Assembly (NCBI GenBank): GCA_964235545.1
Contig: CAXSEG010000002.1
Span: 1-48,658 of the forward strand
DNA: 48,658 nt
Source of the DNA: an uncultured Acetobacteraceae bacterium
GTDB taxonomy: Bacteria; Pseudomonadota; Alphaproteobacteria; Acetobacterales; Acetobacteraceae
Direction: 5' to 3'
The translations under genes were made by a program, and so were the position numbers. Shown here in pieces: positions 16,592 through 48,658 of the stretch (position 1 is the stretch's first letter; every line of letters begins with the position of its first letter). The notes under the pieces are model-generated. The model did not search any database, was not told the DNA's origin, and saw nothing but the letters and a program-made list of their open reading frames with translations.

Positions 16592-16918
16592 ATGGACAGA
16601 AACCAGGCCAGCAGGGTCGGTGGCGAGGCTGGACAGGCCGAGATCATCGTCGAGATACTGGCCAGGCTTGAAGAGCAGGGTCGCCAGACGTTGGAGCTGG
16701 TCCGGTCGCTGGTCACGATCCTGATGCCGAAAGAGGGCGGCCGGGAAGGACCGTCGCTCGAAGACCTGATCCGAGTGCTGATTACACAGCAGCGCGAGAC
16801 CATCACCCTTGCCAAGGCGATGCAAGAGGACCTGCATCGTCAGGGCGAAACCCTGCCGCTGGCCGTGGCCGAAGCCGTCGTGGAGCAAATCCGCCATTCG
16901 GGGGCCGCCCGGCAGTGA
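16592..16918 (+). CDS. Small helical protein coupled to the relaxase (possible relaxosome accessory)
   Basis: GGAGGGG RBS, ATG 16592, and a TGATG overlap with the relaxase start. Confidence 0.7.
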   Translation: MDRNQASRVGGEAGQAEIIVEILARLEEQGRQTLELVRSLVTILMPKEGGREGPSLEDLIRVLITQQRETITLAKAMQEDLHRQGETLPLAVAEAVVEQIRHSGAARQ

Positions 16919-19900
16919 TGAACTTCCGCAAGATCGCGGCCGCCTCCAAGGGCAAGCTGCTGCTGCGGTACTTCACGGAGAACACGCCAGAACCGATCCA
17001 TGAGCCCGGGGTAGACGCCGCCGGGCGGCAACTCGACTCTGGGGGACGGCTGACCGCCTACTACACCGGCCGCGACAGCCGGGCGACCTGGCGGACCGAC
17101 ATGCCGGCCGCGATCGCCAGAGCGGCAGGCATCGACGCCCTGCGTATGCCACGGGACGAGGCCATGGCCCGTCTTTTCGAGGGCCGCCGGGCCGATACCG
17201 GCGAGGCCTGGTCGAAGCACCACCGCAAGCTGAGCGGTTTCGACATGGTGTTCTCGCCCCACAAATCGGTCACGCTTGCAGCGGAGTTCGCGGCCACCCC
17301 AGCGGAGAGCGCCGCCATCTGGAACGCCATGGACCGTGCCAACGACCGCGCCATGCGGCACGTCGCCCAAATCCTTGGCTGGGCCAGGAAGGGGGCGGGT
17401 GGCGAGGACGGGGCCGACCCGGGGGCGGTCGGCTGGATCAGCTTCCGCCACCACGCCGCCAGACCGACGCTGCATGTGCAGGATGGCGCTAGCGGGCAGA
17501 CCTACCTGATCGACGCGCCAATCGCGGGCGACCCACACGCGCATATCCACAATTTCCTCCTGAACCTTGTCGTCACCGAGGATGGCAGGGTCGGGTCGCT
17601 CGACACACGGGCGCTGACCGATCCGCGGGTCAAGGAGTTCGGCGCCTACTTCCAGGCCGTGCTGGCGGACGAACTGCGCCGCCTCGGCGCCGAGATCGGC
17701 TACGATGCCGGCAAGCAGGCCGTGGTGCTCACGGCCATTCCGGAACACGTAAGCAAGGTGTTCAGCAAGCGCGACAAGCAAATCCTGCGCAGCGCCCGGA
17801 CTTTTGCCGAGACACAGGGCTTGGTCTGGAACGACCTCTCGGCCGAGCACAAGCTGCAGATCGTCGAGGAGGCCAGCGCCGAAGGCCGCCTGGGCAAGAT
17901 GAAGGCAGACGAGCGGCGCATCTGGCGGGAGCAGGCCAAGGCACTGGACTGGAACCACCGGACTGTGGCGGACACCGTTGAGCACGAGAAGCTGAGCGAT
18001 GCAGAGCGATTCGACAGGGCGTATGAGTTCGCCGCCAAGGAACTGGCCCATGAGTTCCACACCGCGGCCGTGCTCAGCCACGAGAAGCTGGCCATGTATG
18101 CCGCGCGCGGCCTGATCGGGACCGGTATCGCCGGCGGATCCGACGACATCAAGCGGGTCGTCGCTTTGCTGGAGGAGCGCGGGATCCGGCTCAAGGGCGA
18201 GCAGGTGGCGCTGGTCGTGGGCGTGTTCGATGGACAAGTCCGGGCCACCAACACCGCGCAGATCCGCATCGAGGAGAAGCTGGCGGCAACGGTCCGGGCG
18301 ACAGCACGTGACCGGACCGGAGCGCTGCCGGTTCAGGTTCTGCGGCAGGCAATCGCGGCCTCCGGGATCGACTTTACCGCCGGGCAACGCGCTGCGATCA
18401 ACGCGATGGGTTTGGGCGGAGCGCTCACCTTGCTGACGGGCGTCGCAGGAGCGGGTAAGACGACGCTGTTGCAGCCCCTGGTCTCGGCATGGCAGACCGA
18501 CACGCGGTTTGACCAGGGCGGGCGGGAGGTCATCGGTGCGGCGACTGCGTGGCGCCAGGCCGACGCGCTCAAAGATGCCGGCATCGGCCGCACCTATGCC
18601 TTGCACCCATTGCTCAAGATGATCGAGGCCGGTGAATTCAAGACGAGCCGGAACACGGTGCTGGTGCTGGACGAGGTGAGCCAGATCGGGCCACGGCCGA
18701 TGTTGAAATTGCTGGAGCTGCAAGCGCGCACCGGCATGACGGTCAAGATGTTGGGTGACCGGGAGCAGGCCCAAGCGATCGAGGCTGGCGACACGATCGA
18801 GCTGCTGCACCGCTCGCTTCCCCCGGAGGCGCGGCCTGGGTTGCTCACCACCGTGCGCCAGACGACGGAGCGAGGCCGGGAGATCGCCGGCCTGTTCCGG
18901 GAGGGACAGGCGGCCAAGGCTCTCGAGATGAAGCGGGAGGATGGCACCGCGCGTATGGTGGGCGGCGACCGCGACCAGGTCGTGAGCGCCATCGCCGACC
19001 TCTACCTTGAGCGCCGGGACGCCCTGGTCGCTTCGGGCAGCAAGCGCGGGGTCAGCGTGACGGCGCCGACGAACGACGACGCGGCAGAAATCAGCCAGGC
19101 AATCCGGCGCAGGCTGAAGGAGCGCGGCGAGATCGGCGCCGACGAGGTGGTCTATCGCGCGATCGACCAGCGCGGGCAGACCTACGATCTGGCGATCGCG
19201 GCGGGCGACCGGCTGCGGCTGTTCCGGCGAACGTGGGGCATGGCCGACGGCGAGCGCGTGCAAGTCGGGAACAACGGCGACGTCGTGGAGGTAATGGCCC
19301 GCACGGACGCCGGGTTGCGCCTTCGAAGCAAGGATGGTGGCGTAGCCGAGGTGGAGTGGCGGCGGCTGGCCGACGATGCCACCAACCGGTTGATGCTGGG
19401 TTACGGTCATGCCCTGACCATCGACGCTGCCCAGGGCATCACCTCGGACGAGCACATCAATGCGCTGCCAAGGGGCACGTCCGGCGTCACCTCCTTTACG
19501 AGCTACGTGGCCGAGAGCCGCAGCCGAGGCACGACTTGGACGGTGATTTCCGAGGGGGCCGTGTACGAGTCGGAACGGCGGCGGCAGGCGCTGGGAGACA
19601 TCACGCCGATCACCGCCGGTGATCTTTGGCGGCGGGCGGCCGAGGACATGTCGGACAAGCGCTATAAGATGCTTGGGATCGACCTGCTCCACGCTGTCCG
19701 CCAAGATCGTGAGCAGGCGACCGATGCCTTCATCGCGTGCCACCGGGCCATGGAAACCGCGGCAATGGACCGGCCGGAGGCCGGCCATGATGCCGTCAAG
19801 CGCTTCCGCGCCGCGGCGGTCAATGAGAGTCTCGGCCGGCATCTGGCCGGGCTCGACCATGCGCTTCAGGAAAACGCGGCCCTGCTTCGCGACGCCGTAC

Positions 19901-20028
19901 GCGCCCGCGAGACCGCCGAACACCTGCGCGCGTTGCGCGTCGAGGCTGCGGCCGCGAAGCGCGGCATCGATGCTACGGCCAAGGCCCAGCCCCGGCCATT
20001 CCCCCCTTCGGCCGGCCTCGGTCCATGA
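16918..20028 (+). CDS. MOBF relaxase-helicase (TrwC/TraI-like)
   Basis: N-terminal tyrosines (RYF, AYY), FDMVFSPHKSV, HUH motif DPHAHIH, and a RecD-like helicase with GVAGAGKT, VLDE, GDREQ, AQGIT and YVAESR. Confidence 0.93.
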   Translation: MNFRKIAAASKGKLLLRYFTENTPEPIHEPGVDAAGRQLDSGGRLTAYYTGRDSRATWRTDMPAAIARAAGIDALRMPRDEAMARLFEGRRADTGEAWSKHHRKLSGFDMVFSPHKSVTLAAEFAATPAESAAIWNAMDRANDRAMRHVAQILGWARKGAGGEDGADPGAVGWISFRHHAARPTLHVQDGASGQTYLIDAPIAGDPHAHIHNFLLNLVVTEDGRVGSLDTRALTDPRVKEFGAYFQAVLADELRRLGAEIGYDAGKQAVVLTAIPEHVSKVFSKRDKQILRSARTFAETQGLVWNDLSAEHKLQIVEEASAEGRLGKMKADERRIWREQAKALDWNHRTVADTVEHEKLSDAERFDRAYEFAAKELAHEFHTAAVLSHEKLAMYAARGLIGTGIAGGSDDIKRVVALLEERGIRLKGEQVALVVGVFDGQVRATNTAQIRIEEKLAATVRATARDRTGALPVQVLRQAIAASGIDFTAGQRAAINAMGLGGALTLLTGVAGAGKTTLLQPLVSAWQTDTRFDQGGREVIGAATAWRQADALKDAGIGRTYALHPLLKMIEAGEFKTSRNTVLVLDEVSQIGPRPMLKLLELQARTGMTVKMLGDREQAQAIEAGDTIELLHRSLPPEARPGLLTTVRQTTERGREIAGLFREGQAAKALEMKREDGTARMVGGDRDQVVSAIADLYLERRDALVASGSKRGVSVTAPTNDDAAEISQAIRRRLKERGEIGADEVVYRAIDQRGQTYDLAIAAGDRLRLFRRTWGMADGERVQVGNNGDVVEVMARTDAGLRLRSKDGGVAEVEWRRLADDATNRLMLGYGHALTIDAAQGITSDEHINALPRGTSGVTSFTSYVAESRSRGTTWTVISEGAVYESERRRQALGDITPITAGDLWRRAAEDMSDKRYKMLGIDLLHAVRQDREQATDAFIACHRAMETAAMDRPEAGHDAVKRFRAAAVNESLGRHLAGLDHALQENAALLRDAVRARETAEHLRALRVEAAAAKRGIDATAKAQPRPFPPSAGLGP

Positions 20029-20283: not shown

Positions 20284-21258
20284 TCACTCACTTGTAACAC
20301 CCGATCGATGCAAGGTCAGATGGAGCTGCCGAAGCGCAGCCTGTTCCACGTCGGTGGCGCACTCGTGCCGTGCCTGCTGAATGATCGCCGGCACCATGTC
20401 GCATCGCACCCATTCGGGACAACGGAACTCGCCATTCTCGAAGCGGAGGACCACCCGGTCGAACTTCTCGCCCATGCCCGGCAACGGCACGGTGTGTTGG
20501 TAGAAGTGGAACCGGTCAGGTCGCAGCGCAGCCCTGCGCTCGCGTGTTGCCCAACCGTTCGCCAGCCGGGATAGGAAGCCGCGGCCCTGGTCGGCGTCCG
20601 ATCCGGAAAGCCCCCGAGCCTCCCGGAAGATACACGTCGCCAGCCACTCGATGCAGTTCGTGACGCTGACCCCTTTGACCTCTGCTTCGTGCATGAAACA
20701 CACGTGCAACCCATCCGTTTGTTCATCAACGGTGAGGAGTGCCCGGGCACCGCTGCCGTTGTAGATGCCTGCCGGATGAAGGTCGCGAGCGGAGAAGTCG
20801 CGCCAATACCGCCTCAACTTGGGGGCGCGGGGATCGGCAAAGGCCAGTATCCCGTCAGGCTGGCGGGTTGCAAGCCGTCCCTTAACGTCGCGCGCGGCCG
20901 TCTCGGCCATGCAGGTCATGCGGGACCACTCGGCATTGACCTCCTCGACCGTACGCATATCGGCGCAGCACGGCACCGGGCATATTTGTCCCAACCACTC
21001 CAGCTCCTCACCGACAGGGAACGTCGTGAATACCCAGTCGGCGTACTCTTGCACCGTGCGGTGATGGGTCTCGAACGATCGTGACCAAGCCTCGAAGTGC
21101 CGGTTAAAGTCGGCTCTCGCCGGTATATGGGCTGCGTCCATAGCGCCCTCCGTTGTGTATAGCCGTCGCATCTCGTCGAAGGCACGATCGCGGTCGAAGG
21201 TCAGACGATCGTGAGCGACCTTCCAGTCGGGGTCATAGCGGATGTTGAGGTGAGGCAT
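20284..21258 (-). CDS. Hypothetical protein
   Basis: 324-aa ORF with normal globular composition, containing a GVSVTNCIEWLAT motif. No family recognised. Confidence 0.7.
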   Translation of the reverse strand: MPHLNIRYDPDWKVAHDRLTFDRDRAFDEMRRLYTTEGAMDAAHIPARADFNRHFEAWSRSFETHHRTVQEYADWVFTTFPVGEELEWLGQICPVPCCADMRTVEEVNAEWSRMTCMAETAARDVKGRLATRQPDGILAFADPRAPKLRRYWRDFSARDLHPAGIYNGSGARALLTVDEQTDGLHVCFMHEAEVKGVSVTNCIEWLATCIFREARGLSGSDADQGRGFLSRLANGWATRERRAALRPDRFHFYQHTVPLPGMGEKFDRVVLRFENGEFRCPEWVRCDMVPAIIQQARHECATDVEQAALRQLHLTLHRSGVTSE

Positions 21259-21331: not shown

Positions 21332-21751
21332 TCAGCCGGTTTGCGCCCGTAGTCTTCGCCCCACCGGCAGCATCACGGGGCTTACCGAATGCGACCGCAA
21401 CGGCGAGAACCAAAACCGATTGAACTTCCGAAAGGCGTCGCCACCGTCGGTCCGCAACTCGCCCGCCTTGCTATGGGCGCAAAGGTAGGCGATCAACTGA
21501 ACTTCCAGCACGTCTGCCCCAGGAATCCTCTGGGCGTCTGACAGAGACTCCGTCTCGGCCGCGGCCGCGGTGCAGTGGAATGCGCCGGCGATACACTGGC
21601 CGTTCCCAAGCAACACCTCGCCGGACCAGCGCCGGACCGCGCGCTCCGTGACCGGGCAACCGGTCGGCGCATCCTGCCAGGTTACGTCCCGTCCGGCCGG
21701 CAGGAACTCCGCATCTTCCGGCTGCGGCACGGCGGCGGCTTCACTGGTCAT
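21332..21751 (-). CDS. Possible hypothetical protein
   Basis: ATG 21751 overlaps the end of the upstream gene and the ORF fills the gap. No motif. Confidence 0.3.
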   Translation of the reverse strand: MTSEAAAVPQPEDAEFLPAGRDVTWQDAPTGCPVTERAVRRWSGEVLLGNGQCIAGAFHCTAAAAETESLSDAQRIPGADVLEVQLIAYLCAHSKAGELRTDGGDAFRKFNRFWFSPLRSHSVSPVMLPVGRRLRAQTG

Positions 21752-22409
21752 AATGGCGCGGCACCCACATCCAGGCTCCGTCGCGCCAGGCGTACTCGCC
21801 GGGCACGAGCTGACGACCCGCCACATGGCGCAGCGTCGTTTCGGGCGGAACCCAGTGATAGGTGGCGCCCCGCAGCTGCCAATGGCCCGGAAGCAGGGCG
21901 TATGTGGCGACAGGGGCAGTTGGAACAGGCAGAAGGACGGGTGGTGGGAAGAACGCGGCAGGCGGCACCGATACCGGCGCGGCTGCGGTATCGGCTGCCA
22001 GAGCGTCATCAATTGCCCGGAGCGCACCGAGGCGATCCCGGGCTGCGACGAAGCGCCGGGCCACGGCGATGTCCAGCACTGCTCGTTGATCGTCCGAGGC
22101 ATTGGTGCGGGCGTGGTCCAACAGCCGCGTTTCCGCCCGCTCCAGGGCCTCCTGCGCCTCTGCCGTCCGATCGCGACCAATTGCGGAGCGCGCGACCAGG
22201 AGATAGGCCCGCGGTGGATCGGCCGACGGCACCGGCGGGACTAGCCGCGCCGGCGCGATGGAGGGACGGCTATCGAATGGCTCGATGCCGCTGGCGTGCC
22301 CGGAGTAGGCGGCGATCTCCGTTTCTGCCGTCAGGGCGTTACTCGGAACGGGTATGGTGGCCACGAGGACGGCGCCGGCCAGCATCAAGGGAATTGTGGG
22401 TCGAGTCAT
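21741..22409 (-). CDS. Exported protein with YXWGXW-like C-terminal repeats
   Basis: GGAGG RBS, signal-like N-terminus, EAQEALERAETRLL helix, then PGHWQLRGATYHWVP and PGEYAWRDGAWMWVPRHY. Confidence 0.7.
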   Translation of the reverse strand: MTRPTIPLMLAGAVLVATIPVPSNALTAETEIAAYSGHASGIEPFDSRPSIAPARLVPPVPSADPPRAYLLVARSAIGRDRTAEAQEALERAETRLLDHARTNASDDQRAVLDIAVARRFVAARDRLGALRAIDDALAADTAAAPVSVPPAAFFPPPVLLPVPTAPVATYALLPGHWQLRGATYHWVPPETTLRHVAGRQLVPGEYAWRDGAWMWVPRHYDQ

Positions 22410-22554: not shown

Positions 22555-24900
22555 CTAAGCTGCCCGCTTGAGCGCTGCACGCGCCGTGATCGCTTCGACC
22601 CGATTCGTGACGGCGGCGAGATGGGCCTGAAACGTCACAAGCGTCATCGCCGGCGGCTCTACAGGCACGATGGCGTCCAGAGCCTCATCCCGGTCGCCCA
22701 AGATCGAGAGCGCAATGCCGCGGACGTCGTGCTGCGGCGCGCCCGCGAGCGCTTCGATAGCCTCGATCCGGTGGCGCACCCGAACGTCGACCGGCTCGTT
22801 CGGGTGTGCCGCCGTGTCGGGCCCGGCGAACACGGCCTTGCTGGCCGCTTGCAGCATCGGCGTCACGCTCGACACCGGCATGCCATCCGCCGGAGGAAGC
22901 GGTCGGGCGGGAAGGTCGCATTCTGGCACCTTCCCGACGCTCGCGAGGGCGGCCTGAGCGCAGCCGCGGGGGTCGGCGCCGCCGATTGCTGCGTCGGTGA
23001 AACGCTCGATCAGGGCAGCCAAGACGGGTGATTGCTCCTCAGATCCGCCTTCCCCCAGCTTGCCGCCCTCGATCGTCCGGACCATCCGCGCCAGGTGATC
23101 GACGCGGGCGCGCACCGCGCCGGCATCGGGGGGCAGCAGCATCACGGTGCGGCCCAGCCGCTTCGGGCCGGCATCGCTCACGGAGGCATGGAACACCTTG
23201 GCGTAGATGCGGCGGCCGCCGAACAGGATGATTGCCTCGCCCTCGATGAGGTTGGTGAGGTCCTGCCAGTCCACCCGGTAGACGGTCCGGATTTCGGCAC
23301 TGCGCGCCTCGCGGTACAGCCCGTCGTTGGCTCCCTGGTATGACGTGACCTGCGTTACGTTTGTCTGGCCCGCGGTCTTCTCGAGCCACTCGCGGGTGCG
23401 GCCGGCTTCCTGCTGACGCATGGCGATGGTCAAGTTCGCGTTGCCGAGCAGGGAAGCCGTTTTCTCGCCGAGCCGCGCCCAGATACCCGACACCTCCTGG
23501 AAGCCCAGCATGAAGCTGATGTTGAGGCCGCGGCCCATAGCCAGCATGCGGTCGAGGCCGGACGTTGCGTAGTAGGCCATCTCGTCCAGCACGATCGGAA
23601 ATGGCGCCGGACCCATGCCGGGCTTGTCCTCCACCGAGTAGTCACCTTCCAGGGAGATGCCGAGCAGCTGCGCCATCATGCCGCGCAGCGACGCCACGAC
23701 CAGCTTGCCGAGAGCGGCCAGGGTCGCGTCCGAGTTCTCCAGTGCCGGCAGGTTGACGACCAGGATGCGGCGATTGAGCACGACGTCGCGCATGTCGATG
23801 TCGCCGTTGGGCACTTTGAAGATGTGGCCGAGGCTTACGCCGAGTTGGGTGAAGATCGGCGTGAAGTACATCTGCAGGAAGCCATGTTGCTTGCTCGGCT
23901 CGTCGCCTTTCTGCTTATCGAGCGGCATCGATGGATCGTAGCCGGGCAGCTCACCCAGGTAGGAGCGCAGCGGCGAGATGATCTCTTCCGGGATCTCGCC
24001 GCCGACGTCGATGTCGGTGGTCTCGCCCGTCTCGGTGTTGCGGATGACGGCGATCTTCTCCATCGCCATCTTCCATATCCAGTTGAGCGGGATCGCGTCC
24101 CGGATTACCTCGACGTTGAGCGAGATGGCCTTATGGTCCCGCAACCAGACCAGCACGGGCGCCATGGTCCCGATCAGCGCCACGGCGCGCTCGCGGAACA
24201 CGCCGTTGGAGTCGCCCGCGGCCTGCTCGCCCAATTGCGAGGCGAGGATTTCACGCAGGGCGTCGGCGTTGCCGGTCGCGAACACGTTCCAGGTGTTGCT
24301 GTCCTTGAGACCGGAGGCAACCATGAAGTTGATCACCCGCACGTCGTCCTCGCGGCCGAAGCGGCGGGCCATTGCCAAAACCTTGGCGTAAACGTCACGC
24401 TGCGCCTTGCCGTCGACCAGCACGAAGCCGGAGCCTTGCGCGAGGGCATTTTCCAGCAGGCTCAGGATGGTCGTGGTCTTGCCCGCACCTGTCGTGCCGG
24501 GAATCGTCATGTGCTGGCGGAGGTCGTCAGCCGTGACCCATATCTCGTGCCCCTGGAGGTCCCAGCCGATGATCCAACCGCTTTCGGCCTTCTTGGCTTT
24601 GCGGGTGCCAGGGTCGGGATTGCCATAATCCAGCGTGGCAGCGCTTTCCGGGAGCCGGATCGGCAGCAGCACACGCCGGGTCAACACCCAGGCGGCATAG
24701 AACACGGACGCCGGCAGCGTCAGGTCGAGGACGGCCGGGAAAAGGAACGTGCCCGTCGCGGCAGCGGCCAGCACAACGCCCGACGCCGAACTGCGTAGCG
24801 CCTCGGACAGCCGGGTGGTGAAGGGCCGGATATCCCTGAGAGCCTGGGCGCCGCTGCGCTCGTACTGGTCCTGCGGACCGACGATCTGGCGCTGGATCAT
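22555..24900 (-). CDS. dotL: Type IVB coupling protein DotL/IcmO (TrbC-like)
   Basis: N-terminal TM segments, HMTIPGTTGAGKT, VDGK, RRILVVNLPALE, IVLDE and a long C-terminal extension. Start at ATG 24900. Confidence 0.9.
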   Translation of the reverse strand: MIQRQIVGPQDQYERSGAQALRDIRPFTTRLSEALRSSASGVVLAAAATGTFLFPAVLDLTLPASVFYAAWVLTRRVLLPIRLPESAATLDYGNPDPGTRKAKKAESGWIIGWDLQGHEIWVTADDLRQHMTIPGTTGAGKTTTILSLLENALAQGSGFVLVDGKAQRDVYAKVLAMARRFGREDDVRVINFMVASGLKDSNTWNVFATGNADALREILASQLGEQAAGDSNGVFRERAVALIGTMAPVLVWLRDHKAISLNVEVIRDAIPLNWIWKMAMEKIAVIRNTETGETTDIDVGGEIPEEIISPLRSYLGELPGYDPSMPLDKQKGDEPSKQHGFLQMYFTPIFTQLGVSLGHIFKVPNGDIDMRDVVLNRRILVVNLPALENSDATLAALGKLVVASLRGMMAQLLGISLEGDYSVEDKPGMGPAPFPIVLDEMAYYATSGLDRMLAMGRGLNISFMLGFQEVSGIWARLGEKTASLLGNANLTIAMRQQEAGRTREWLEKTAGQTNVTQVTSYQGANDGLYREARSAEIRTVYRVDWQDLTNLIEGEAIILFGGRRIYAKVFHASVSDAGPKRLGRTVMLLPPDAGAVRARVDHLARMVRTIEGGKLGEGGSEEQSPVLAALIERFTDAAIGGADPRGCAQAALASVGKVPECDLPARPLPPADGMPVSSVTPMLQAASKAVFAGPDTAAHPNEPVDVRVRHRIEAIEALAGAPQHDVRGIALSILGDRDEALDAIVPVEPPAMTLVTFQAHLAAVTNRVEAITARAALKRAA

Positions 24901-24949: not shown

Positions 24950-25330
24950 TCACGCGAAGAGCCCTGCCAGGATCCGGCGCAGACCGAACAGCACGTAAAG
25001 GTGCTGGTTGGCTGGCTCCGGCGATGGCTGCATGAGGGTCGGGTTGGCTGGGTCATAGCCGGGGGTTTCGGCAAGATACCGCTTGAGCGCGGCCGTCAGC
25101 GCCTCGGGCATGCCGGCAAGGTCGATGTCGGACCCATCTGGATCGAGCGAAGGCAGCCGGCGCTCCTGCACGATCGCCGTGATCCCGCGCAGGCTGATGG
25201 CCTTTCGTGCATGCGCCGGGGTCGGCTTGAACCCTCTTGTTTGCTGCGCCCAGGCGAACACGGCCTGCAGGTCGCGCAGGAGGACGTCGCCACGCTCTCG
25301 GTGAATGTCGAAGACCGCTGTGGTGTCCAT
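24950..25330 (-). CDS. Small protein paralogous to the internal all-alpha domain of DotL
   Basis: LKRYLAETPGYDPANP...EPANQH aligns by eye with DotL LRSYLGELPGYDPSMP...EPSKQH. The RER and DID anchors also align. Confidence 0.75.
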   Translation of the reverse strand: MDTTAVFDIHRERGDVLLRDLQAVFAWAQQTRGFKPTPAHARKAISLRGITAIVQERRLPSLDPDGSDIDLAGMPEALTAALKRYLAETPGYDPANPTLMQPSPEPANQHLYVLFGLRRILAGLFA

Positions 25331-27688: not shown

Positions 27689-27690
27689 GA

Positions 27691-37400: not shown

Positions 37401-37418
37401 GAAGCAGCTCCTTGCAGG

Positions 37419-40280: not shown

Positions 40281-41327
40281 CTATTCCTTCAGTTCGGCCG
40301 AGACCGTGCGGCCATTGACGGACAGCAAGACGACGGGCGTGTTCGGCACGGCGTAGACCGTGAGACCCGCCTCCGCCTCCGAGGCGGTCCACTCCGGCGA
40401 CAGCAGCGTGTAGCTCGTGCGCAGGTAGACGTTGCGGCCGAGCCGCCAGGCGCGCAGTCCCTCCGGCGAGACGCCGACCACGGAAAGCGGCACGGCGTCG
40501 GCCGGCGGAACGCCTTCCAGCATACCGGTCAGGAACGGCGCGCCGGTGTCGGGCCGGTCCGGCTGGGTGATGATGTCGACTTTGGCGTGCGGCCCGCGGT
40601 CGGCGACGTGGATGCTGAGGCTAGCATCGTAGCGGCCGCCGCCGGTCACCAGCAGGAAGGTGATCGGCTTGGGCGAGCCTTCCAGCGATACGACCAGGCC
40701 GCCCCGCGGACTGAGCGAGGCGGGGGTGATCTGCAGCACGTTGCTGCCCTTGGTGGGGGTGCACACGTAGAACCCGTTGACCGGCCCGGACTGGCCGCCG
40801 CCAGCGGCATTGGAGACGTTGCAGTTGTTGCTGCCCGACGCCGCGGCTGGGTTGGAGTTCGTGTCCCATTGGATCGGCCAAGGCTGGCCGGTGCTGTCGA
40901 AGAAGCTGACCGCCGTCGGGAAGTTCTTGGCAGTGTTGATGATGCTGGTGGCCGCGCCCGGCGCGAAGCTGACGTTGACCTGACGGTTGTTCGGCGCCGC
41001 CAACTCGCTGACGCCCTCCTCGCGGGCACGCTGGGTCGCGTTGTAGCGTCGCGCCAGGTCCCGGATCATGTCTTCGGTGAGCGGGATCGCGTCCTGGGCA
41101 GCCCGGTTGGCGGCGGGGTTGCCGTTTGCAGGATTGTCCGGGTCGCCAGCTCCCGGGAGCAGCGTGACCGGCTGGCCCGCTGTTTGGGCGAATGCTGGGG
41201 CGCCCATCAGCGCGCTGGCAAGGATGAGCGTTGCAACGAGGGCAGGGCGCACGGTCGCCTCCTGGCGGGTTGGGGCGGCTCTCATGGCGCGACCGGCTTG
41301 CGCCGCCGGGGGTTCGGCAGCGGACAT
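40281..41327 (-). CDS. dotH: DotH/IcmK (TraN)
   Basis: TAVSFFDSTGQPWPI, RGPHA, LEGVPP and YLRTSYTLLSPEW. Confidence 0.88.
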   Translation of the reverse strand: MSAAEPPAAQAGRAMRAAPTRQEATVRPALVATLILASALMGAPAFAQTAGQPVTLLPGAGDPDNPANGNPAANRAAQDAIPLTEDMIRDLARRYNATQRAREEGVSELAAPNNRQVNVSFAPGAATSIINTAKNFPTAVSFFDSTGQPWPIQWDTNSNPAAASGSNNCNVSNAAGGGQSGPVNGFYVCTPTKGSNVLQITPASLSPRGGLVVSLEGSPKPITFLLVTGGGRYDASLSIHVADRGPHAKVDIITQPDRPDTGAPFLTGMLEGVPPADAVPLSVVGVSPEGLRAWRLGRNVYLRTSYTLLSPEWTASEAEAGLTVYAVPNTPVVLLSVNGRTVSAELKE

Positions 41328-42025
41328 CAGTGCGACGACGCCACGAGCTGATCGACGGCCAGCCCGTCCGGGTGATCGTCGCTGTTGGTTCGTACGATCG
41401 TGGCTGTGATCAGCAGGTTGTTGGGCGAGGTCTGGTTGACGTTCTCGCAAGTCTGCAGGATCGGCACTTGGATCTCGTAGGCCAGCGCGCCCTGCTTGTA
41501 GCTGGTCTGGTGGATGATGGCCGCCCGCTGCGACTGCGCATGGCACAGCAGCCGAGCCCTCTTCAGCTGTTCGAAGTTGCCCTGGCCGATGTAGCTGTTG
41601 GCGAACGTGTTCCAGCCGGACAGGGTGAAGCGCCGGCTCGCAATGTTCAGCTGGGCCGGATAGTTCATGTAATCGACGTTGTAGGGCGCCAGGATCGCCT
41701 TGACCGACCACTCCAACAGCTCGGTGTCATCGACGATCGGACTGTCGAGGCTGACGACCGGGTGTGGCGGGTTCTTGCCGTCCACGAAGAAGTAGCGCGG
41801 CTGCATGGGGTTGACCCAGACGTAGGCGTCGTGGACGAGGGACAGCCCGAGCAGGGCGCCCATCCCAAGCGTGAGCGCCAGGCATTTCGTGACTAGCCCG
41901 GCCTGGAAGTCCGGATCCGACAGGCGGCGGATGACCGCGGCGTTCTGATTCCTCATCTCGGCAATCCACGGTCTGTGTGTTACGGATGCAGCGTCGCTCG
42001 GCGTTCTGCGAACGGCCTCGGGCAT
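41327..42025 (-). CDS. dotI: DotI/IcmL (TraM; VirB8-like)
   Basis: TM then PRYF, DYMNYPAQL...FTLSGWNTF and GLAVDQ. Confidence 0.88.
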   Translation of the reverse strand: MPEAVRRTPSDAASVTHRPWIAEMRNQNAAVIRRLSDPDFQAGLVTKCLALTLGMGALLGLSLVHDAYVWVNPMQPRYFFVDGKNPPHPVVSLDSPIVDDTELLEWSVKAILAPYNVDYMNYPAQLNIASRRFTLSGWNTFANSYIGQGNFEQLKRARLLCHAQSQRAAIIHQTSYKQGALAYEIQVPILQTCENVNQTSPNNLLITATIVRTNSDDHPDGLAVDQLVASSH

Positions 42026-43401
42026 GGTATGCGAGCGAAGGGCCGATCCGGTGCGTCGTCGCAGTGAAGATCCAATTCCAGGTCAGGGTCATCGAGGTCG
42101 GCCCGGGTCAGCAACGTGATCGACTCGCCCTTGTACTTGTCGTATTCGCCGAGAATCCCGTTGCGGAACCGGGCTGCGCGGTTGGTCCTGACGTTCCTGT
42201 CGCGCCGCTCGTGCTTCCAGAACAGGTGGCCTTTACCGGTTTCACGACCCACCCCGGTCTTGTCGCGAACCAACACGTAGCGGGACGCCTCGAGCGTTGC
42301 CGCAGCCATCTCCGGGTCGAAATCTGCGCTGAATTTCCTGCGGTTGCGATCGCGGGGCAGGTTGGCCCGGTACAGCACACCATGCAGGGCCGCCTCGGTC
42401 ATACCAGCGTCGCGGGCGATGTAGGCCGGATGCTGCCCGCCGAAATAGCGCATCGAGAGCGCGAGGATGGCTTCCTGGTTGGAAGCGAGCCGGCGGGTGC
42501 GGCCGATCCACGCGATGTCGGACACGGCTGGAGCTACCGCTGTGGTCACGCCGATCGGCTTATTTCCGAAGGACAGCGGCATGGCCGCAGGCGGCACCAG
42601 CTCGCTCGTAGTCCCAGGCGCGACCGACTTGGGTGCTGCCAACGACGGTTTTGCGGCAGATTTTGCGTCTGCTGACGACACGACCACACCGAAGAACGGC
42701 ATCTCGCGCTGTGCCTGCCTCTTGCCGGCTGCCAGCCTGGCTGCCGTTTGTTTGGCCGCTGGCTGCAGAGGCTCTGCCGAGGCAGTAGTATCAGCGGTCG
42801 TCGCCGCCGCAGTTTGCAGGGCAGCGACGTTTGGGATCGATGTCAAATCCCAGGTGGGATTAGGCGCCACTGCCAGGGTGGGTGGTGTTGACCCGGAGTT
42901 CGGGGACCGGGTGGCGCCTGCCCGGAACCGCGTGGAGTTGTCAGACAGGAAATATCCCAGCTCCGGGTCCCGGAGCGTTGCGGGATCGACCCGGCGCAGA
43001 TCCTTCCGGTTCGGCGCAGGAATGCCAAGGCGTCGGGCCTTGGCCCTGACGGCTCCCACCGATCTATTCAGCCGTTGGCCGATGACCTCGGGGTGGATGC
43101 CCGCGACGCGCCAGGCGATGAGCCGCATGGTGTCGAAAGGTGTCCAACCCTTGTCGCCCGGCTTGCGCATTGGACGATCATGCGGTGTGCGTAAGCCTAG
43201 CCGGACCAGGTTCTCGTCGAGCACCTCTCGGGACAAGCCCAGGAAAAGGCAGATGGCGTTGATGCCCTGACCAGCGGCCACCATGCCGGAAAGGACGCGA
43301 TCGAACGGAAATGATGCAACGGCGGCGATGCACCGCACGACTGACGCAAGCCGCGGCGAAGCCTCGTCTAACTTGGTTCCGCAGAAAAGGGCTGCCGACA
43401 C
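41980..43401 (-). CDS. Multi-HTH regulator with a GcrA-like domain (start uncertain)
   Basis: WTPFDTMRLIAWRVAGIHPEVIGQRLNRSVGAVRAKARRLG resembles the GcrA N-terminal HTH. Two further HTH-like segments and an Ala/Pro/Thr linker are present. Confidence 0.6.
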   Translation of the reverse strand: MSAALFCGTKLDEASPRLASVVRCIAAVASFPFDRVLSGMVAAGQGINAICLFLGLSREVLDENLVRLGLRTPHDRPMRKPGDKGWTPFDTMRLIAWRVAGIHPEVIGQRLNRSVGAVRAKARRLGIPAPNRKDLRRVDPATLRDPELGYFLSDNSTRFRAGATRSPNSGSTPPTLAVAPNPTWDLTSIPNVAALQTAAATTADTTASAEPLQPAAKQTAARLAAGKRQAQREMPFFGVVVSSADAKSAAKPSLAAPKSVAPGTTSELVPPAAMPLSFGNKPIGVTTAVAPAVSDIAWIGRTRRLASNQEAILALSMRYFGGQHPAYIARDAGMTEAALHGVLYRANLPRDRNRRKFSADFDPEMAAATLEASRYVLVRDKTGVGRETGKGHLFWKHERRDRNVRTNRAARFRNGILGEYDKYKGESITLLTRADLDDPDLELDLHCDDAPDRPFARIPCPRPFAERRATLHP

Positions 43402-43531: not shown

Positions 43532-43957
43532 TCAGTCGGATTGAGCGACCATCGGTTGGCTTGCAAGTGCATGGCGGAGATCGGACAAGCTCCTTAGTTC
43601 CTGCAACAGCTCGCCCTCCTGTTGATGCCAAACGGCCAAACGGTCGGGTAAGTGCTCTAGTAGAGAACAAAGATGCGCCAGAGCCGTCGGAGACACCGGA
43701 GCTGCCTTGCTCTCCGGTAGAAAGTCTCTCACGTCCACGCCGAGCACCTCTGCAAGTTTCGCCATGGTCTTGAGTGTGACATTCGCGTCGCCGCCTTCGA
43801 GTTCGACGACGTAGGACCGTTGCAAATCGGCCTTCGCAGCGAGTTCGGCTTGTTTCAGGCCGGCCTTCACCCGGGCATGCTTCAATTTCGCACCGAAAAC
43901 TTCGGCTATCGAGACGTCGCCAGTTGGTCCAGACGACAATTGGGAGGCTTTGGACAT
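43532..43957 (-). CDS. XRE-family HTH transcriptional regulator
   Basis: FGAKLKHARVKAGLKQAELA...RSYVVELEGGDANVTLKTMAKLAEVLGV. Confidence 0.9.
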   Translation of the reverse strand: MSKASQLSSGPTGDVSIAEVFGAKLKHARVKAGLKQAELAAKADLQRSYVVELEGGDANVTLKTMAKLAEVLGVDVRDFLPESKAAPVSPTALAHLCSLLEHLPDRLAVWHQQEGELLQELRSLSDLRHALASQPMVAQSD

Positions 43958-44130
43958 CGTTAGGAACGGCACCCTTTCTCAAGTGGTCGCTGCCGACCGG
44001 CCGCGAACCATGCGAACAGGCTGTTCTACGAACCAATCGCCTTATCGGATGCAACGCGACGGCATCGCAATGCCCATTCGCAAGATGTCACAGGATAATT
44101 CGCCAAAATGCAGTTTAGAGGCTTCCGCCG

Positions 44131-44544: not shown

Positions 44545-44601
44545 CGACGCCGTTCGCAACGCGAGAGGTGATCCTCGCTGCTGACAGGTCAGGAAGCTGC
44601 C

Positions 44602-45066
44602 ATGCCCAACCTCGAACTCCACGCCGTCAGAGCTTGGCTCGCCGACTGGCACCCCATCGCTCTCGCGGCTTGGCCGCCAGCGGTGCGTGCTCTCGAAAAC
44701 GAGGGCGACATGCCGGTACGGCTCGCCCAGCTTGGCACGGCGCTCGACGGAGCGGCAGAGGCCGATCTGGAGCGGCTTTCACAGGCTTTGCTCGCCGAGC
44801 CTGTCGTCTCGGACCTGAGATCGCTGCTCGCTCAGTTCGGCGCAGCCCGAAGCGTCAGGCTCCTGCACTGGTTGACGGAGTCCGGGCTGCCTGACGCCGA
44901 TAAAGTGTTGCAAGCGCTTCTGCGGGGACAGACCGACGGCTCCAACGCCTTGCGCGGGCTGCTTGGCGCTCTCCGCCGCCGCGCCGTCCTGGACCGCATC
45001 TTTGCGCCGGAGCGCCTCGCAGCGCTCGAGAGCGCTTGTCGCGACACTCTTTTGGAGGATGCTTGA
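44602..45066 (+). CDS. icmW: IcmW-like adaptor protein
   Basis: MPNL..., LAQLGTALD, RSVRLLHWL and VLDRIFAPERL parallel remembered IcmW MPDL..., KQLGQELD, RGLRLLQAI and LLSRVF...RL. Length is similar (154 aa). Confidence 0.65.
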   Translation: MPNLELHAVRAWLADWHPIALAAWPPAVRALENEGDMPVRLAQLGTALDGAAEADLERLSQALLAEPVVSDLRSLLAQFGAARSVRLLHWLTESGLPDADKVLQALLRGQTDGSNALRGLLGALRRRAVLDRIFAPERLAALESACRDTLLEDA

Positions 45067-45617
45067 TGGTCGGAATCCTTGCCCGCGGGCTCGTCGTGCT
45101 GCTCCCGGCCATGGCCGTCGCCGGCCCGGCTGCGGCTCAAGGCACGGCGACCGGAAGCGTTGGCTGCGCGGCCGTCACCCAGGCCGCGATCAACGGCCAG
45201 ACATCCCGCATCGGCGCCGACGACACCACGATCAACCCACCCCAGAGCGTCAAGAATCTGACGTGCCTGGATAATTTCTTCAACGGGGTGGGACTCAACC
45301 TCGTGACCAACCTACTGAACCCGGGAAACCTGCTGCAGGCCGTCGAGGGACAGATCTGCAGCCTGGCGAAACAGGAATGGTCCTCCCTGCTCGGCAGCGC
45401 CCAGTGCGGCTTAACTATCACCGGGTTCAATCTCGGCTTCGGCGGCATCGGCGGCGGCTTGTCCTGTCCAAAGCTGTCGTTCGGTGGCGGCGGACCGCCA
45501 ATTGGCTCGGTCGGGCTCGGCGTCGGGTCCGTCAATGGCAGCAGCCTCTACATCAACGGCAATGGCCTGCCGCCTACCGGCTACAGCGCGCCGAATGTGC
45601 CGCCTGGCATCCTTTAG
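45066..45617 (+). CDS. Exported Cys/Gly-rich protein (TraV-like by position)
   Basis: TGATG overlap with icmW, signal peptide and spaced cysteines. Precedes the TraW-like gene. Confidence 0.65.
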   Translation: MVGILARGLVVLLPAMAVAGPAAAQGTATGSVGCAAVTQAAINGQTSRIGADDTTINPPQSVKNLTCLDNFFNGVGLNLVTNLLNPGNLLQAVEGQICSLAKQEWSSLLGSAQCGLTITGFNLGFGGIGGGLSCPKLSFGGGGPPIGSVGLGVGSVNGSSLYINGNGLPPTGYSAPNVPPGIL

Positions 45618-45629
45618 GGACTGACCGCC

Positions 45630-46850
45630 ATGAAAAGGCTCACCCTCGTTTCTTCCACCGCCCTCGGCATCGTCGTCGGCGGCGTTGTCTTCAATACCGT
45701 CCCGGCGCTGGCGCAGCTCGCGACCATCGACGTTGCCTCGATCGTGCAGCAGATCAAAAGCTTTGCCCAGGAAACCGGCATGCTCGATGCCCTGAACGCG
45801 ATCAACACGATTCAGACGACGATAAACTCCGGCATCAGCGACCTCAACAAGGCGCTGGGTGCCGGGACGTTCGGGGACGTACAGACGCTGCTGCAGCAGG
45901 GCTTCACTCAGACGTCGAATTACATGAAGGCTCAGGTCGGCGCCCAGCAGCAGATCACCGACGCTTCCAACACGGCCATGGCCCGGTTCCATCGCGATAT
46001 GAGAAACGCGCAAATCCGCGACGAGCAGACCCCAAGCCCCCTGGCCTGTTCCGCGATCGACGGGGGCGTCAGCGCCCAATCGGCCGGCGTGCAGGCGTTC
46101 GGCGTGGGGGCACAGATCGCCCATATCCACGATATGAGGGGCGAGGCGAGCGTGGGAATGCCGTCGCATTTCGGTCAAGCTCAGGCCGTCGCCTCCATGT
46201 CAGCGGTTCACAACGGCCTGTATTGCAATGCAGACGACGACGCAGCCGGCCTTTGCCCAAACGGGCCGAGCGTTACGCCGGATGCCGACCAACAGATGCT
46301 TAGCCTGTTCGGCTCGGGGACCTACCCGAACCAGGCCGCGGTCAACACGGCGAAGGACTACGCCGTCAACCTGATCCAGCCGATTGCCCCAGCCGCCTTG
46401 CGCGGCGATCAGCTGAGGTCCACGGCAGGCCGAGACGCGGCGGTGCGGCGGCGCAGCTACAACGCCCGCATGTCGTTGGCCCAGAGCTTCATCGACATGA
46501 CGATCGGTATGCAAACGCCATCGGTTCCGCTTACCGCTGTCCAGTCGCAGTTCCTTAGCAACATGGGCCTGCCCGCGCAGGCCAACGGGTCCTGGCTGCA
46601 GGTCGTGCAGATCGAAGCCGAGCGCCGCATCAGCGACGTCACCTGGAATACCAACCTGCAAAGCATGCCGCCTGCATCGGTCGAGCGCGAGATGGCCAGC
46701 GAGTTGGCCTTGAACAACTACCTGCTGTTCCAGAACTATAAGATGAGCTTGATGCACGCCTCGATCGGCGCGGCCCAGCTTGCCGCCGATACGGACCGCA
46801 ACTTCCAACCGACCGTCCGTATGCCGACGCCGAACATGGCGTCGAACTGA
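45630..46850 (+). CDS. TraW/IcmX-like periplasmic conjugation protein
   Basis: Signal peptide, 406 aa, helical and Gln-rich, with YCNADD...GLC, YNARMSLAQ and W...L...REMA. Lies between icmW and dotA. Confidence 0.6.
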   Translation: MKRLTLVSSTALGIVVGGVVFNTVPALAQLATIDVASIVQQIKSFAQETGMLDALNAINTIQTTINSGISDLNKALGAGTFGDVQTLLQQGFTQTSNYMKAQVGAQQQITDASNTAMARFHRDMRNAQIRDEQTPSPLACSAIDGGVSAQSAGVQAFGVGAQIAHIHDMRGEASVGMPSHFGQAQAVASMSAVHNGLYCNADDDAAGLCPNGPSVTPDADQQMLSLFGSGTYPNQAAVNTAKDYAVNLIQPIAPAALRGDQLRSTAGRDAAVRRRSYNARMSLAQSFIDMTIGMQTPSVPLTAVQSQFLSNMGLPAQANGSWLQVVQIEAERRISDVTWNTNLQSMPPASVEREMASELALNNYLLFQNYKMSLMHASIGAAQLAADTDRNFQPTVRMPTPNMASN

Positions 46851-46881
46851 GCGACGCGGACGCAGCATTATCGGAGCCCCC

Positions 46882-48261
46882 ATGGCGGACCCAAACACCC
46901 ACGCAGCGAGTGACAACACGCCAAAATCGCCCCCCGCCAGTGGAAGATCAGCCGGTGACGGTGCTGCTTCAGCCCCGCCGGAAAAGGATCCCATGCGCGA
47001 CCTGCTGCAGCGGATTGAACGTGCCACGCCGTTGCTGGCGAACGTGGACAGCGAGCTGGCCCGCAGCGTGAAGGCGCTGGCCCGTCAAAGTGCCGACGCA
47101 GAACGGGCCGTCCAGCCGGGTTTCCGGACGGAGGTGGCCTATCTCCTTCAGGACATCGAGAAGAGCGCGGTCGGTCGCATCGAACTCTCCGCCACTCTCC
47201 GGTCGGAGATGACGAACTTGGCACGCAGCGCACCCGGCCTCGAGAACGAACGCATGCTCGGGCTCATGGGTCAGACCGCGGGCATCTCGGATCGGAGCCT
47301 CGTCCGTGAAATCCGGGTTGCCGGGAACGACATCGGGCAACAGGCCAATCAAGCCACTCCAGAAACCCAAAGCCGGATCGACGTCATCGAGAACCGTCTG
47401 CGATTGACCCAACGGGCCCCCGAGCCGAGGCAAGGCCCTCCGACTGGGCCGGAACAACCGGTAGAGCCGCGCCAAGGCCAAACTCCTGAGCGTCCTACCA
47501 CCCCTGAGCCACCGTCACGACCTCGGCCGGACGCCGTCTCAGCCTTTACGGCGATGCCCGGGAACGGTGGCCAGGCTACCCAGCCTGTGCTCATGGCCCG
47601 ATCGCCGCTCGACGCGGTGTTCTCGGCCATGCGTCCCAGCGAGAAGGTCACGGGCGCTCCTTGGGATCCCTCGCCAACGCCCATGCGGGACCGGCTCTCG
47701 ACCTTCGAACGGACCATGCAGGAGGGTGCCGACGACAGGACCTTACGACGGGCCGAGCAATCAGGCCGGGCGGCGTTGGACGCCCTGCAGGCGTTCAGTA
47801 CAGGCGAAGGCGCCGCCGTGATGAGCCGCATCCGTGAAGCGGCCCGCAGCGAGCCAGGCGGCATGGCGTCAGTGTTGTCCGAGATGAAGCAGGGCGGGCG
47901 CTTCGCCGACCTGCGTGGTCAATTCAACAACGCCCTGCTCGATGAACGCGACGTCGCTGCCGCCTATGACCGCGCCGCCTCGGCGCTGGCGCGTCACGGC
48001 GAGGACCGGACCGCCGTCGAGCAGGTCATCGCCCGGCGTCCTGATGCCGCCAATCTCAGTGCCAAGTTCGACCAGATGGACGCCGCCATAGGTGAAGCCG
48101 CGGGCAATACGCCTTCCCGCAAGGATGGCAAGGCAATGCTCGACGATCTGGCGAAGGCCGCAGGCGAGCTGCTGCACCGCGCCGTCGTGGCCGTGAAGTC
48201 CATGGTCTCCCGCTCGCCCTCGGCTGAGCCGACCGCGCGGCCCTCCTCACCCTCGCCGTGA
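46882..48261 (+). CDS. Soluble helical protein with two domains and a Pro-rich linker
   Basis: GGAG RBS, ATG 46882, 459 aa, no TM or signal peptide, tail SRSPSAEPTARPSSPSP. Confidence 0.75.
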   Translation: MADPNTHAASDNTPKSPPASGRSAGDGAASAPPEKDPMRDLLQRIERATPLLANVDSELARSVKALARQSADAERAVQPGFRTEVAYLLQDIEKSAVGRIELSATLRSEMTNLARSAPGLENERMLGLMGQTAGISDRSLVREIRVAGNDIGQQANQATPETQSRIDVIENRLRLTQRAPEPRQGPPTGPEQPVEPRQGQTPERPTTPEPPSRPRPDAVSAFTAMPGNGGQATQPVLMARSPLDAVFSAMRPSEKVTGAPWDPSPTPMRDRLSTFERTMQEGADDRTLRRAEQSGRAALDALQAFSTGEGAAVMSRIREAARSEPGGMASVLSEMKQGGRFADLRGQFNNALLDERDVAAAYDRAASALARHGEDRTAVEQVIARRPDAANLSAKFDQMDAAIGEAAGNTPSRKDGKAMLDDLAKAAGELLHRAVVAVKSMVSRSPSAEPTARPSSPSP

Positions 48262-48330
48262 TGGCGGCCGCGGAGGAGCCGTTCGCAAGCAGGACTGACA
48301 GTTTCGCGGGAACATTCCCGCGAGGCACCC

Positions 48331-48658
48331 ATGCGCAGCACCCGGACCACTATCGCCGCCTTGGCTTTAACGGCCATTGCCGGGCCGGTCTTCGCCCAGA
48401 GTGTTGCACCGGCCAGCAACCCCTATAACGTCAGCTGGGCGGCCCTCAGCCCCGGCAACGACTGGGCTGCACAGGTGATCCGGTCGGTGTTCCCCGTCCC
48501 GGGATTTACGTCCGACGTTCCGACCGGCAACGCGGCGACGGTCGTCCAGCAGCTGGTCGGGCAGTTCACGGGCTTCGTGGGCGCGATCGCGTGTGCCTTC
48601 GTGGCCTATAACGTCATCATGAACATCCACCGCGCGGCCGAGAGTTCCCGTATCCTGG
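48331..48658 (+). CDS. dotA: DotA/TraY family protein, N-terminal part (runs off the window)
   Basis: Not in the ORF track. ATG 48331 gives MRSTRTTIAALALTAIAGPVFAQ...NDWAAQVIRSVF...QFTGFVGAIACAFVAYNVIMNIHRAAESSRIL, a TraY/DotA-like first TM in the expected position after traW. Confidence 0.7.
   Translation, partial: MRSTRTTIAALALTAIAGPVFAQSVAPASNPYNVSWAALSPGNDWAAQVIRSVFPVPGFTSDVPTGNAATVVQQLVGQFTGFVGAIACAFVAYNVIMNIHRAAESSRIL

Follow-up and report, generated by a model that had tools for sequence, protein, structure and literature searches.

A TrwC-type relaxase encoded next to a Dot/Icm machine raises the question of what that machine carries: plasmid DNA, chaperoned proteins or both. IcmS-IcmW is the effector adaptor familiar from Dot/Icm pathogens, and both adaptor types are encoded at this locus, which lies in a stretch of 48,658 nucleotides (the window; contig CAXSEG010000002.1 of assembly GCA_964235545.1, from an uncultured Acetobacteraceae bacterium). 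Our reading is that the locus probably serves a self-transmissible plasmid as its transfer region, with a DotL tail predicted to bind IcmS-IcmW.

The coupling complex and its adaptors

The DotL/IcmO coupling ATPase (22555-24900, reverse strand, 781 aa) matches the solved DotL of 783 aa with an E-value of 1.5e-103, in an alignment that spans residues 11-736 and includes the C-terminal tail, which is full length. A small ORF (24950-25330, reverse) resembles, at about 30% identity, part of DotL's own domain that from its position we take to be the all-alpha domain. DotM/IcmP (26519-27688, reverse) was identified by PF23127 (E 5e-49), and DotN/IcmJ (35228-35872, reverse) by a four-row alignment against solved DotN (E 3.8e-11), the single-sequence family search being weak (E 0.0097); LvgA, DotY and DotZ did not surface in an untargeted family scan of 58 ORFs. 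In a quick tree, from which the Acinetobacter row L020 was left out, in which long branches were flagged and four IcmS- and IcmQ-positive genomes stand in for named Legionella rows, the window's DotL clusters with Dot/Icm proteins and separately from the TrbC of IncI and IncL/M plasmids, with support of 100 on both sides. The preliminary description had cast the locus as a bridge between IncI conjugation and Dot/Icm secretion, a view that this placement does not support.

Directly after icmT lies a gene for a 144-aa protein (28245-28679, reverse) whose IcmS identity was recovered only through fold comparison and a deeper profile. Sequence searches gave no Pfam match and no PDB match by single sequence or close alignment, and PF12608, run over 16 records, missed the protein. 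Its fold aligns with solved IcmS at Z 14.8 (rmsd 1.8, 110 of 114 aligned; next match Z 5.2), Foldseek gives an E-value of 3.6e-6, and profile-profile comparison with four PF12608-positive IcmS proteins reaches 94.9% (E 4.7e-8). The IcmW-fold adaptor (44602-45066, forward, 154 aa) passes PF23130 with 28.7 bits against a cut-off of 27, and its fold aligns with solved IcmW at Z 11.9 (rmsd 2.8, 140 of 149 residues). Against the PDB it was matched by alignment (E 0.025) and by Foldseek (E 0.03), with no match to the single sequence; the IcmW query found nothing over the genome collection, and the profile had no match on three of seven family plasmids. Both adaptor assignments, first made from the letters of the window, withstood profile and fold comparison. 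On pND6-2 and pXCV183 IcmW was matched with E-values of 5e-18 and 4e-15, and an IcmS-like gene is present on both (profile-profile 95.2%, E 2.5e-8); the genes of 155-165 aa preceding the transglycosylase on these two plasmids are not IcmS-like. TraL of IncI plasmids, considered as an IcmS homologue, was rejected by profile comparison.

When the DotL tail was modelled together with IcmS and IcmW, the complex scored 0.73, a value that may reflect memory of, or likeness to, the solved DotL-IcmS-IcmW structure, against 0.00 for the best of three controls. Partner pLDDT was at least 73 and at least 72% of contacts were common to the runs; among solved pairs 116 of 157 attain the mark set for this score, and among mismatched pairs 2 of 215, figures that apply only roughly here. 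In the model, DotL residues 712-718, within a tail of about residues 660-781, form the core of the interface. Binding of the IcmS-IcmW pair by the DotL tail is what this model predicts.

The channel and the mobilization module

Among the channel genes of the Dot/Icm (MPF-I) machine, dotB (28924-30117), dotC (30199-31155), dotD (31148-31747), dotG (38959-40275), dotH (40281-41327) and dotI (41327-42025), all on the reverse strand, have Pfam or NCBIfam matches. The same strand encodes a TrbN-like lytic transglycosylase (27691-28248; family match), IcmT/TraK (28676-28924; NF038220, 117 bits against a cut-off of 40) and the DotO/TraU ATPase (32183-35224), which has TraU/DotO homologues on 3782 plasmids. 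A dotF-like gene (37419-38819, reverse), which has no family match, was named by position and partial conservation, and two small membrane proteins, likewise without a family match, partially conserved and encoded within 36274-38819 (reverse), occupy the traQ/traR (dotE/dotP) position. The forward strand carries a conserved gene for 183 aa (within 45066-48261, ahead of 45630), a TraW/IcmX-like gene (45630-46850; NF033888, E 3e-7, below the cut-off), a gene for 459 aa with no family assigned (46882-48261) and the 5' end of dotA/traY (48331-48658; TIGR04346, E 5e-5), truncated at 109 codons where the contig ends; one relative has a full dotA at the matching position. As far as the contig end, every assigned gene of the window has an open, full-length reading frame. 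The TrwC-like relaxase beside dot/icm genes, as first described, is confirmed, with dotF placed by position only and dotA incomplete.

That relaxase is a MOBF relaxase-helicase (16918-20028, forward; PF08751 TrwC, E 1e-41; NF041492 MobF, 146 bits against a cut-off of 100) in which a TrwC domain is fused to a helicase. The N-terminal tyrosine and three histidines (HUH) are present, and Y18, H178 and H209-x-H211 are invariant in the seven sequences compared. Its start is overlapped by a small gene in the nikA/trwA position (16592-16918, forward), likely to encode a relaxosome accessory protein; this position is kept in the relatives' loci L001, L002, L004 and L021-L023, and homologues were found in five loci.

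A putative oriT/nic site of R388-like build, predicted from motif conservation in the sequence only, lies at 2695-2716 on the reverse strand, with hairpin arms GCACC/GGTGC of 5 bp each followed by an 8-base stretch and then AT; by analogy, the nick is predicted between 2696 and 2695, and the R388 nic oligonucleotide served as comparison for the hairpin-plus-nic build (PMC4176350). The motif search returned one match against a chance mean of 0.01. The motif occurs once in the 4.1-Mb genome and once in five of seven family plasmids, the pattern having been derived from the same loci in which conservation was scored; it was missed on two of the seven and found on one of 12 other plasmids, that one without TrwC. 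Intervening cargo sets it about 14 kb apart from the relaxase, and on a complete plasmid it is also distant from mobF, at 22 kb; no such motif was found in the window within 3 kb upstream of the relaxase gene. Two backbone genes (414-1094 and 1186-2007, reverse; no family match), the second with a P-loop-like start, lie beyond it. In relatives this pair is divergent from the mob operon, just past the oriT motif, and its homologues adjoin mobF in L001, L002, L022 and L023. The system had originally been delimited as 16918-48658; it reaches further, to the oriT-like site.

A plasmid family with a linked relaxase

The locus does not stand alone as a hybrid; some 60 plasmids, from Acetobacteraceae and methanotroph relatives, share it as their backbone, with plasmid matches numbering 62 to DotL, 60 to the IcmS-like protein and 85 to the relaxase. 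Among 65 loci of the DotL clade, 37 have at least 9 kb downstream, and mobF is found in 21 of these 37, the other 16 having none within 10 kb; no mobF was found in 13 non-clade loci. Where mobF occurs it is convergent with dotL in 26 of 28 cases, and the IcmS-like gene is present in 45 of the 50 loci with enough upstream DNA. All seven family plasmids carry TrwC, against none of ten other MPF-I-type plasmids, and the VirB4 family (PF03135) was found on none of 17 plasmids, all seven family plasmids included. DotL and MobF distances correlate (rho 0.67, 27 rows, exceeded in 0 of 999 permutations), although the MobF tree contradicts 6 of the 16 supported splits of the DotL tree and the kin compared are not independent. 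Layout, tree match and the presence of the relaxase on seven of seven plasmids with no VirB4 found make it very likely that the relaxase belongs to the Dot/Icm machine. The original proposal of a conjugative element from an alphaproteobacterium, combining a MOBF relaxase with DotL-M-N-IcmS-IcmW, is supported.

The relatives are plasmids with repC nearby, downstream of dotA in one of them; no replication gene was seen in the window. Within the genus DotL has a patchy distribution, being found in 5 of 24 genomes, and IS elements interrupt some of the relatives. The host genome holds a second dot/icm set, in which dotC and dotO are split, and gave no match to MOBP (PF03432), to NikB by tblastn, or to Sog primase and PilV. 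Several family plasmids have been typed as non-mobilizable despite their mobF and dot/icm genes. The adaptors are "hypothetical" in nearly all records of pGOX1-related plasmids.

Probable DNA transfer and its alternatives

Since the machine is paired with the relaxase and a predicted oriT, it is likely to transfer plasmid DNA to other bacteria and not to inject effectors; transfer itself we infer from the gene identities and linkage observed. The accessory protein and the relaxase would attach to the hairpin (2695-2716), where the nick would be made. A coupling complex of DotL, DotM, DotN, IcmS and IcmW would then recruit the relaxase-DNA, to be pumped into a neighbouring bacterium by way of a channel that DotB and DotO power. 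IcmSW would most likely stabilise the DotL tail and aid recruitment of the relaxase or of other transfer proteins. MobA-mediated DNA transfer via Dot/Icm is abolished without IcmSW, while transfer through Dot/Icm was undetectable with R388 TrwC itself and TrwC-RalF did not require IcmSW (PMC5572225), so that IcmSW need not serve a MOBF relaxase. Our literature search found no report of transfer for any member of the plasmid family, and no paper on the type IVB systems of its Gluconobacter, Acetobacter and Roseomonas plasmids.

Protein delivery by the window's machine is possible, and a machine that moves both DNA and IcmSW-chaperoned effectors, into bacteria or eukaryotes, would account for the full coupling set and the DotL tail being kept, as well as for several genes without an assigned family (for example 46882-48261 and 20284-21258). 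The pXCV183 system aided protein secretion, and preliminary tests of plasmid transfer showed no contribution from it (PMC10432156); according to work cited in PMC13664640, a type IVB system of P. putida that includes icmW kills bacteria. We nevertheless regard such dual use as unlikely. No effector or immunity signature and no recurring effector-immunity pair appeared in the 78 of 93 dotL-mobF ORFs scanned (one interval), many of which had no match, and the cargo matches were to defence, toxin-antitoxin, metabolic, regulator and transposase families and two Fic proteins. IcmQ (PF09475) is present in four of four chromosomal IcmS-positive systems against none of nine plasmids; it was found on none of the seven family plasmids and nowhere in the genome, though a diverged copy could escape the profile. 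Effector systems are, moreover, typically free of relaxases (PMC3548315).

It is very improbable that the machine secretes protein only and that a hitch-hiking relaxase is mobilised by another conjugation system. The variable cargo of 0-8 kb that parts dotL and mobF would allow it, as would a VirD4-like gene on another contig (C19) of the incomplete genome; against it stand the convergent layout, the congruence of the trees and a VirB4 family search without a match on seven family plasmids, and no VirB4-type T4SS, on which the relaxase might depend instead, was found in the 72%-complete genome either. An integrated or decaying remnant, in which the window's copy has lost transfer, is just as improbable: the distance of the oriT motif from the relaxase, the split genes of the second dot/icm set and the IS-disrupted relatives could be read that way, but the assigned genes of the window are intact as far as the contig end and the motif is also remote from mobF (22 kb) on a complete plasmid.

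Implications for IcmS-IcmW

Returning to DNA transfer as the preferred reading, we tentatively propose, as an idea somewhat short of probable, that IcmS-IcmW did not originate in pathogens but is an ancient conjugative coupling part, here recruiting a captured MOBF relaxase on the DotL tail, and that Legionella-type effector secretion re-used the adaptor. Effector secretion had been deduced from IcmSW in the preliminary description; this deduction is not supported, because pND6-2, reported to be conjugative, and pXCV183 have IcmW and IcmS-like genes too, and because MobA DNA transfer needs IcmSW. The pair is thus no marker of effector secretion. PMC6112013 describes the rest of the coupling complex in MPF-I conjugation systems as awaiting characterisation. 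If the proposal is true, these plasmids would provide a harmless natural model in which the complete DotL-M-N-S-W complex has a single defined substrate, and chaperoned proteins may reach recipients as well. Here the full set comes together with a relaxase and an oriT-like site, in a plasmid family that is widespread among acetic acid bacteria, Roseomonas and methanotrophs, and the origin and first job of IcmSW are therefore testable in hosts that are harmless and can be cultured. The oriT motif offers a handle for mobilisable vectors, and the non-mobilizable typing of several of these plasmids is likewise a point of practical value.

Comparison with known systems

The same dotL-mobF layout, with an IcmS-like gene after icmT, is found on pGOX1 of Gluconobacter oxydans 621H, where dotL and mobF are adjacent, and on related plasmids of Roseomonas, Acetobacter, Komagataeibacter, Methylosinus, Methylocella and Beijerinckia. 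The Methylosinus trichosporium OB3b plasmid carries mobF, the IcmS-like gene, IcmW and the oriT motif. pGOX1 differs in its extra type IVb pilus cluster and in that neither IcmW nor the oriT motif was found there. The 2011 type IVB review of Nagai and Kubori reportedly surveys plasmid-borne clusters and may already show pGOX1. With Legionella and Coxiella Dot/Icm the window shares a DotL of the same length with its tail, DotM, DotN, the IcmS and IcmW folds and the icmT-icmS adjacency; it is, however, of plasmid type, with a relaxase and an oriT-like site, and neither IcmQ nor an effector set was seen. IncI1 (R64-type) and IncL/M plasmids have homologous channel genes, and in IncI1 the nikB-nikA relaxase operon faces trbC as mobF and its accessory gene face dotL here, but these plasmids use a MOBP relaxase (NikB in IncI1), their TrbC forms a separate clade and they gave no IcmW or IcmS match.

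A Dot/Icm-side DotL with IcmW and an IcmS-like protein is also plasmid-borne on pND6-2 and pS04 90 of Pseudomonas, both conjugative according to a published report (pND6-2: PMC6133989), and on pXCV183 of Xanthomonas. These three differ in having no TrwC and another gene order; a relaxase has been typed on pXCV183, as MOBP, and none on pND6-2. R388 has in common with the window the relaxase family and the hairpin-plus-nic build of oriT, and differs in its coupling protein, TrwB; its channel is of the MPF-T type. MOBF relaxases are reported with four MPF types (PMC9185392). The surprise of a MOBF relaxase on a Dot/Icm machine is tempered accordingly, since mixing between classes of relaxase and channel is known and MOB-suite had already typed pGOX1 automatically as MOBF with MPF_I.

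Secretion machine, coupling genes and adaptors

The relaxase, dot/icm genes and adaptors listed in the preliminary description are present in the window, as judged by family, alignment and fold matches, with dotF assigned by position alone. DotL (22555–24900, 781 aa) aligns over residues 11–736 with the solved DotL (E 1.5e-103), DotN is confirmed by alignment with the solved DotN (E 3.8e-11), DotO matches TraU/DotO, and family matches were found for DotM, DotB, DotC, DotD, DotG, DotH, DotI and IcmT; dotA is truncated by the end of the contig. Directly before dotL lies a separate ORF (24950–25330, minus strand) resembling part of the DotL all-alpha region, with counterparts (33–45% identity) before dotL at three other loci (L059:89–427, L060:9992–10345 and L103:10013–10378); these could be a substrate-binding module split off DotL, or a decoy. 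Downstream of dotL, as in close relatives, is a predicted exported protein with WXXGXW-like repeats (21741–22406, minus), and likely backbone regulators are an unassigned protein with a conserved N-terminus encoded before dotI (41980–43401, minus), an XRE-type HTH (43532–43972, minus) and a small winged HTH (31891–32181, minus).

The IcmW-like protein (44602–45066, plus; 154 aa) scores above the Pfam IcmW cut-off and its model matches IcmW with Z 11.9 (rmsd 2.8, 140 residues; runner-up match 5.1). The 144-aa IcmS-like protein encoded after icmT (28245–28679, minus) gave no match in sequence searches of Pfam and PDB; its structure model (pLDDT 81) matches IcmS with Z 14.8 (110/114 residues, rmsd 1.8; Foldseek E 3.6e-6), and its 97-row profile, compared with four PF12608-positive proteins, gave 94.9%. 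The DotL tail co-folded with both adaptors scored 0.73 (best control 0.00), with partner pLDDT no lower than 73 and 72% or more of contacts shared; the scoring mark was reached by 116/157 solved and 2/215 mismatched pairs, counts that are only approximate for a three-chain job. Because a similar complex has already been solved, the score is one of likeness, and the predicted model shows resemblance to that complex, not binding. Unannotated IcmS-like genes also occur on pND6-2 (L115:15581–16006) and pXCV183 (L116:10474–10839), with a profile match of 95.2% (E 2.5e-8), the pXCV183 gene in contrast to the available text of PMC10432156, which gives IcmS as missing from pXCV183. A Bosea megaplasmid encodes, near a DotL gene, a 297-aa protein with a C-terminal IcmS-like domain (L018:19476–20369).

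Distribution and phylogeny

The system belongs to a plasmid family and is not a single case. DotL matches at E 1e-100 or better occur on 62 plasmids, the IcmS-like protein on 60 and the relaxase on 85, mainly from Acetobacter, Roseomonas, Komagataeibacter, Gluconobacter, Methylosinus, Methylocella and Beijerinckia, and gene order is mostly kept. On pGOX1, typed by MOB-suite as MOBF and MPF_I, dotL adjoins mobF; some other family plasmids are typed as non-mobilizable. The window takes up its entire contig in an assembly of 4.09 Mb (348 contigs, 72% complete), its type of DotL is carried by 5/24 other genomes of the genus, and the nearest DotL relatives are Rhodopila, Acidisphaera, Acidisoma and Acidocella records.

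A quick DotL tree of 51 rows (midpoint-rooted, with long branches, without locus L020 and with no row named as Legionella), which does not give the order of events, places the window in a 27-row clade (support 100) nested in a 44-row group (support 100). pND6-2 and pXCV183 fall in this group too, together with Micavibrio-like systems and with four genomes that have canonical IcmS and IcmQ, and the TrbC proteins of IncI and IncL/M are among the remaining seven rows. The phylogeny thus sets the window DotL apart from TrbC, and the bridge proposed earlier between IncI conjugation and Dot/Icm is not borne out in the coupling protein.

Relaxase and predicted origin of transfer

The relaxase (16918–20028) matches TrwC and MobF, contains a helicase domain, and has Y18, H178, H209 and H211 invariant across seven homologues. 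It is very likely part of the window's Dot/Icm machine. Out of 533 matches, the best 80 yielded 78 retained loci, 65 of them in the clade; mobF is present at 21 of the 37 clade loci with at least 9 kb downstream and at 0/13 outside it, and is convergent with dotL in 26/28 cases. A single TrwC was found on all seven family plasmids tested versus none of ten others, and VirB4 (PF03135) on none of the 17. DotL and MobF distances are correlated (rho 0.67), with 8/16 supported splits in common and 6/16 conflicting. A different T4SS elsewhere in the genome is an unlikely partner for the relaxase; the 72% complete assembly holds one TrwC and no match to PF03135 or PF03432, though a VirD4-like coupling gene is present on contig C19, for which neither VirB4 nor a matching relaxase was found. 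We take the genes adjoining this VirD4-like gene (segment C19:288–6285) to be replication-initiator-like and ArdC-like. Another, diverged dot/icm set lies on contigs C158 and C103; its DotL is 48% identical, an IcmS-like gene is included, and dotC and dotO are split, through decay or assembly error.

Absent from the preliminary description is a predicted origin of transfer (2695–2716, minus), in which a hairpin (GCACC/GGTGC) precedes a short stretch and AT. The surrounding non-coding DNA (~2680–2740) matches that upstream of mobF in three relatives. The motif lies upstream of mobF at 14/22 loci, and 15 of the 16 motif-bearing loci (among 122) also have mobF. The window contains a single copy (chance mean 0.01), the only one in the 4.1-Mb genome; the motif is likewise present as a single copy on 5/7 family plasmids, and it occurs on 1/12 others. 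None of these counts is independent of the pattern, which was derived from the same loci. Some 14 kb of cargo separates it from the relaxase in the window: an EamA transporter, a TrlF/Ppl-like ATPase and DnaE2. The second (7868–10597, plus) is a PHP and ATPase protein of the TrlF family, above cut-off and resembling the anti-phage protein Ppl, in a stretch of lower GC; the error-prone polymerase DnaE2 is encoded at 10790–14062 (minus).

Discussion

We consider the window probably to be the transfer region of a conjugative plasmid, equipped with an oriT, a MOBF relaxase of its own and a coupling complex of Dot/Icm type. The initial interpretation stands for the conjugative element, the relaxase and the coupling set, and finds no support for the IncI bridge or for effector secretion deduced from IcmSW. 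Reviews, in the text available, place IcmSW within the effector system (PMC11338181, PMC13664640). IcmW is found on pND6-2 and pXCV183, as well as on a MOBP plasmid of Alteromonas, and conjugation is reported for pND6-2 and pS04 90 in the accessible part of PMC6133989. The Alteromonas IcmW is clear (NC_021718, E 3e-26; plasmid typed MOBP and MPF_I). According to excerpts of PMC5572225, transfer by the MobA relaxase through Dot/Icm is abolished without IcmSW, TrwC-RalF is independent of IcmSW, and plain TrwC gave no transfer.

That the machine also serves effectors seems unlikely to us. Counting against our reading, the pXCV183 system, as described in the available portion of PMC10432156, contributes to protein secretion with no role in plasmid transfer detected, IcmW was not found on 3/7 family plasmids, and several conserved genes are unassigned. 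IcmQ was not found on the plasmid family, and matches among 78 of the 93 ORFs between dotL and mobF (the 15 omitted being near-duplicates or from one partial locus) were ordinary cargo and two Fic proteins.

Our literature search, of incomplete coverage, found no publication on the family to which this probable transfer region belongs. Combinations across relaxase and channel classes are already known (PMC9185392, PMC3548315, both in part), and IncM coupling complexes are described, in the accessible text of PMC6112013, with TrbC and TrbA and with other components uncharacterized. In the window, mobF with an accessory gene behind it faces dotL, an arrangement like that of IncI1, in which nikB-nikA faces trbC, and the predicted oriT motif has the same architecture as the nic substrate of R388 given in excerpts of PMC4176350.
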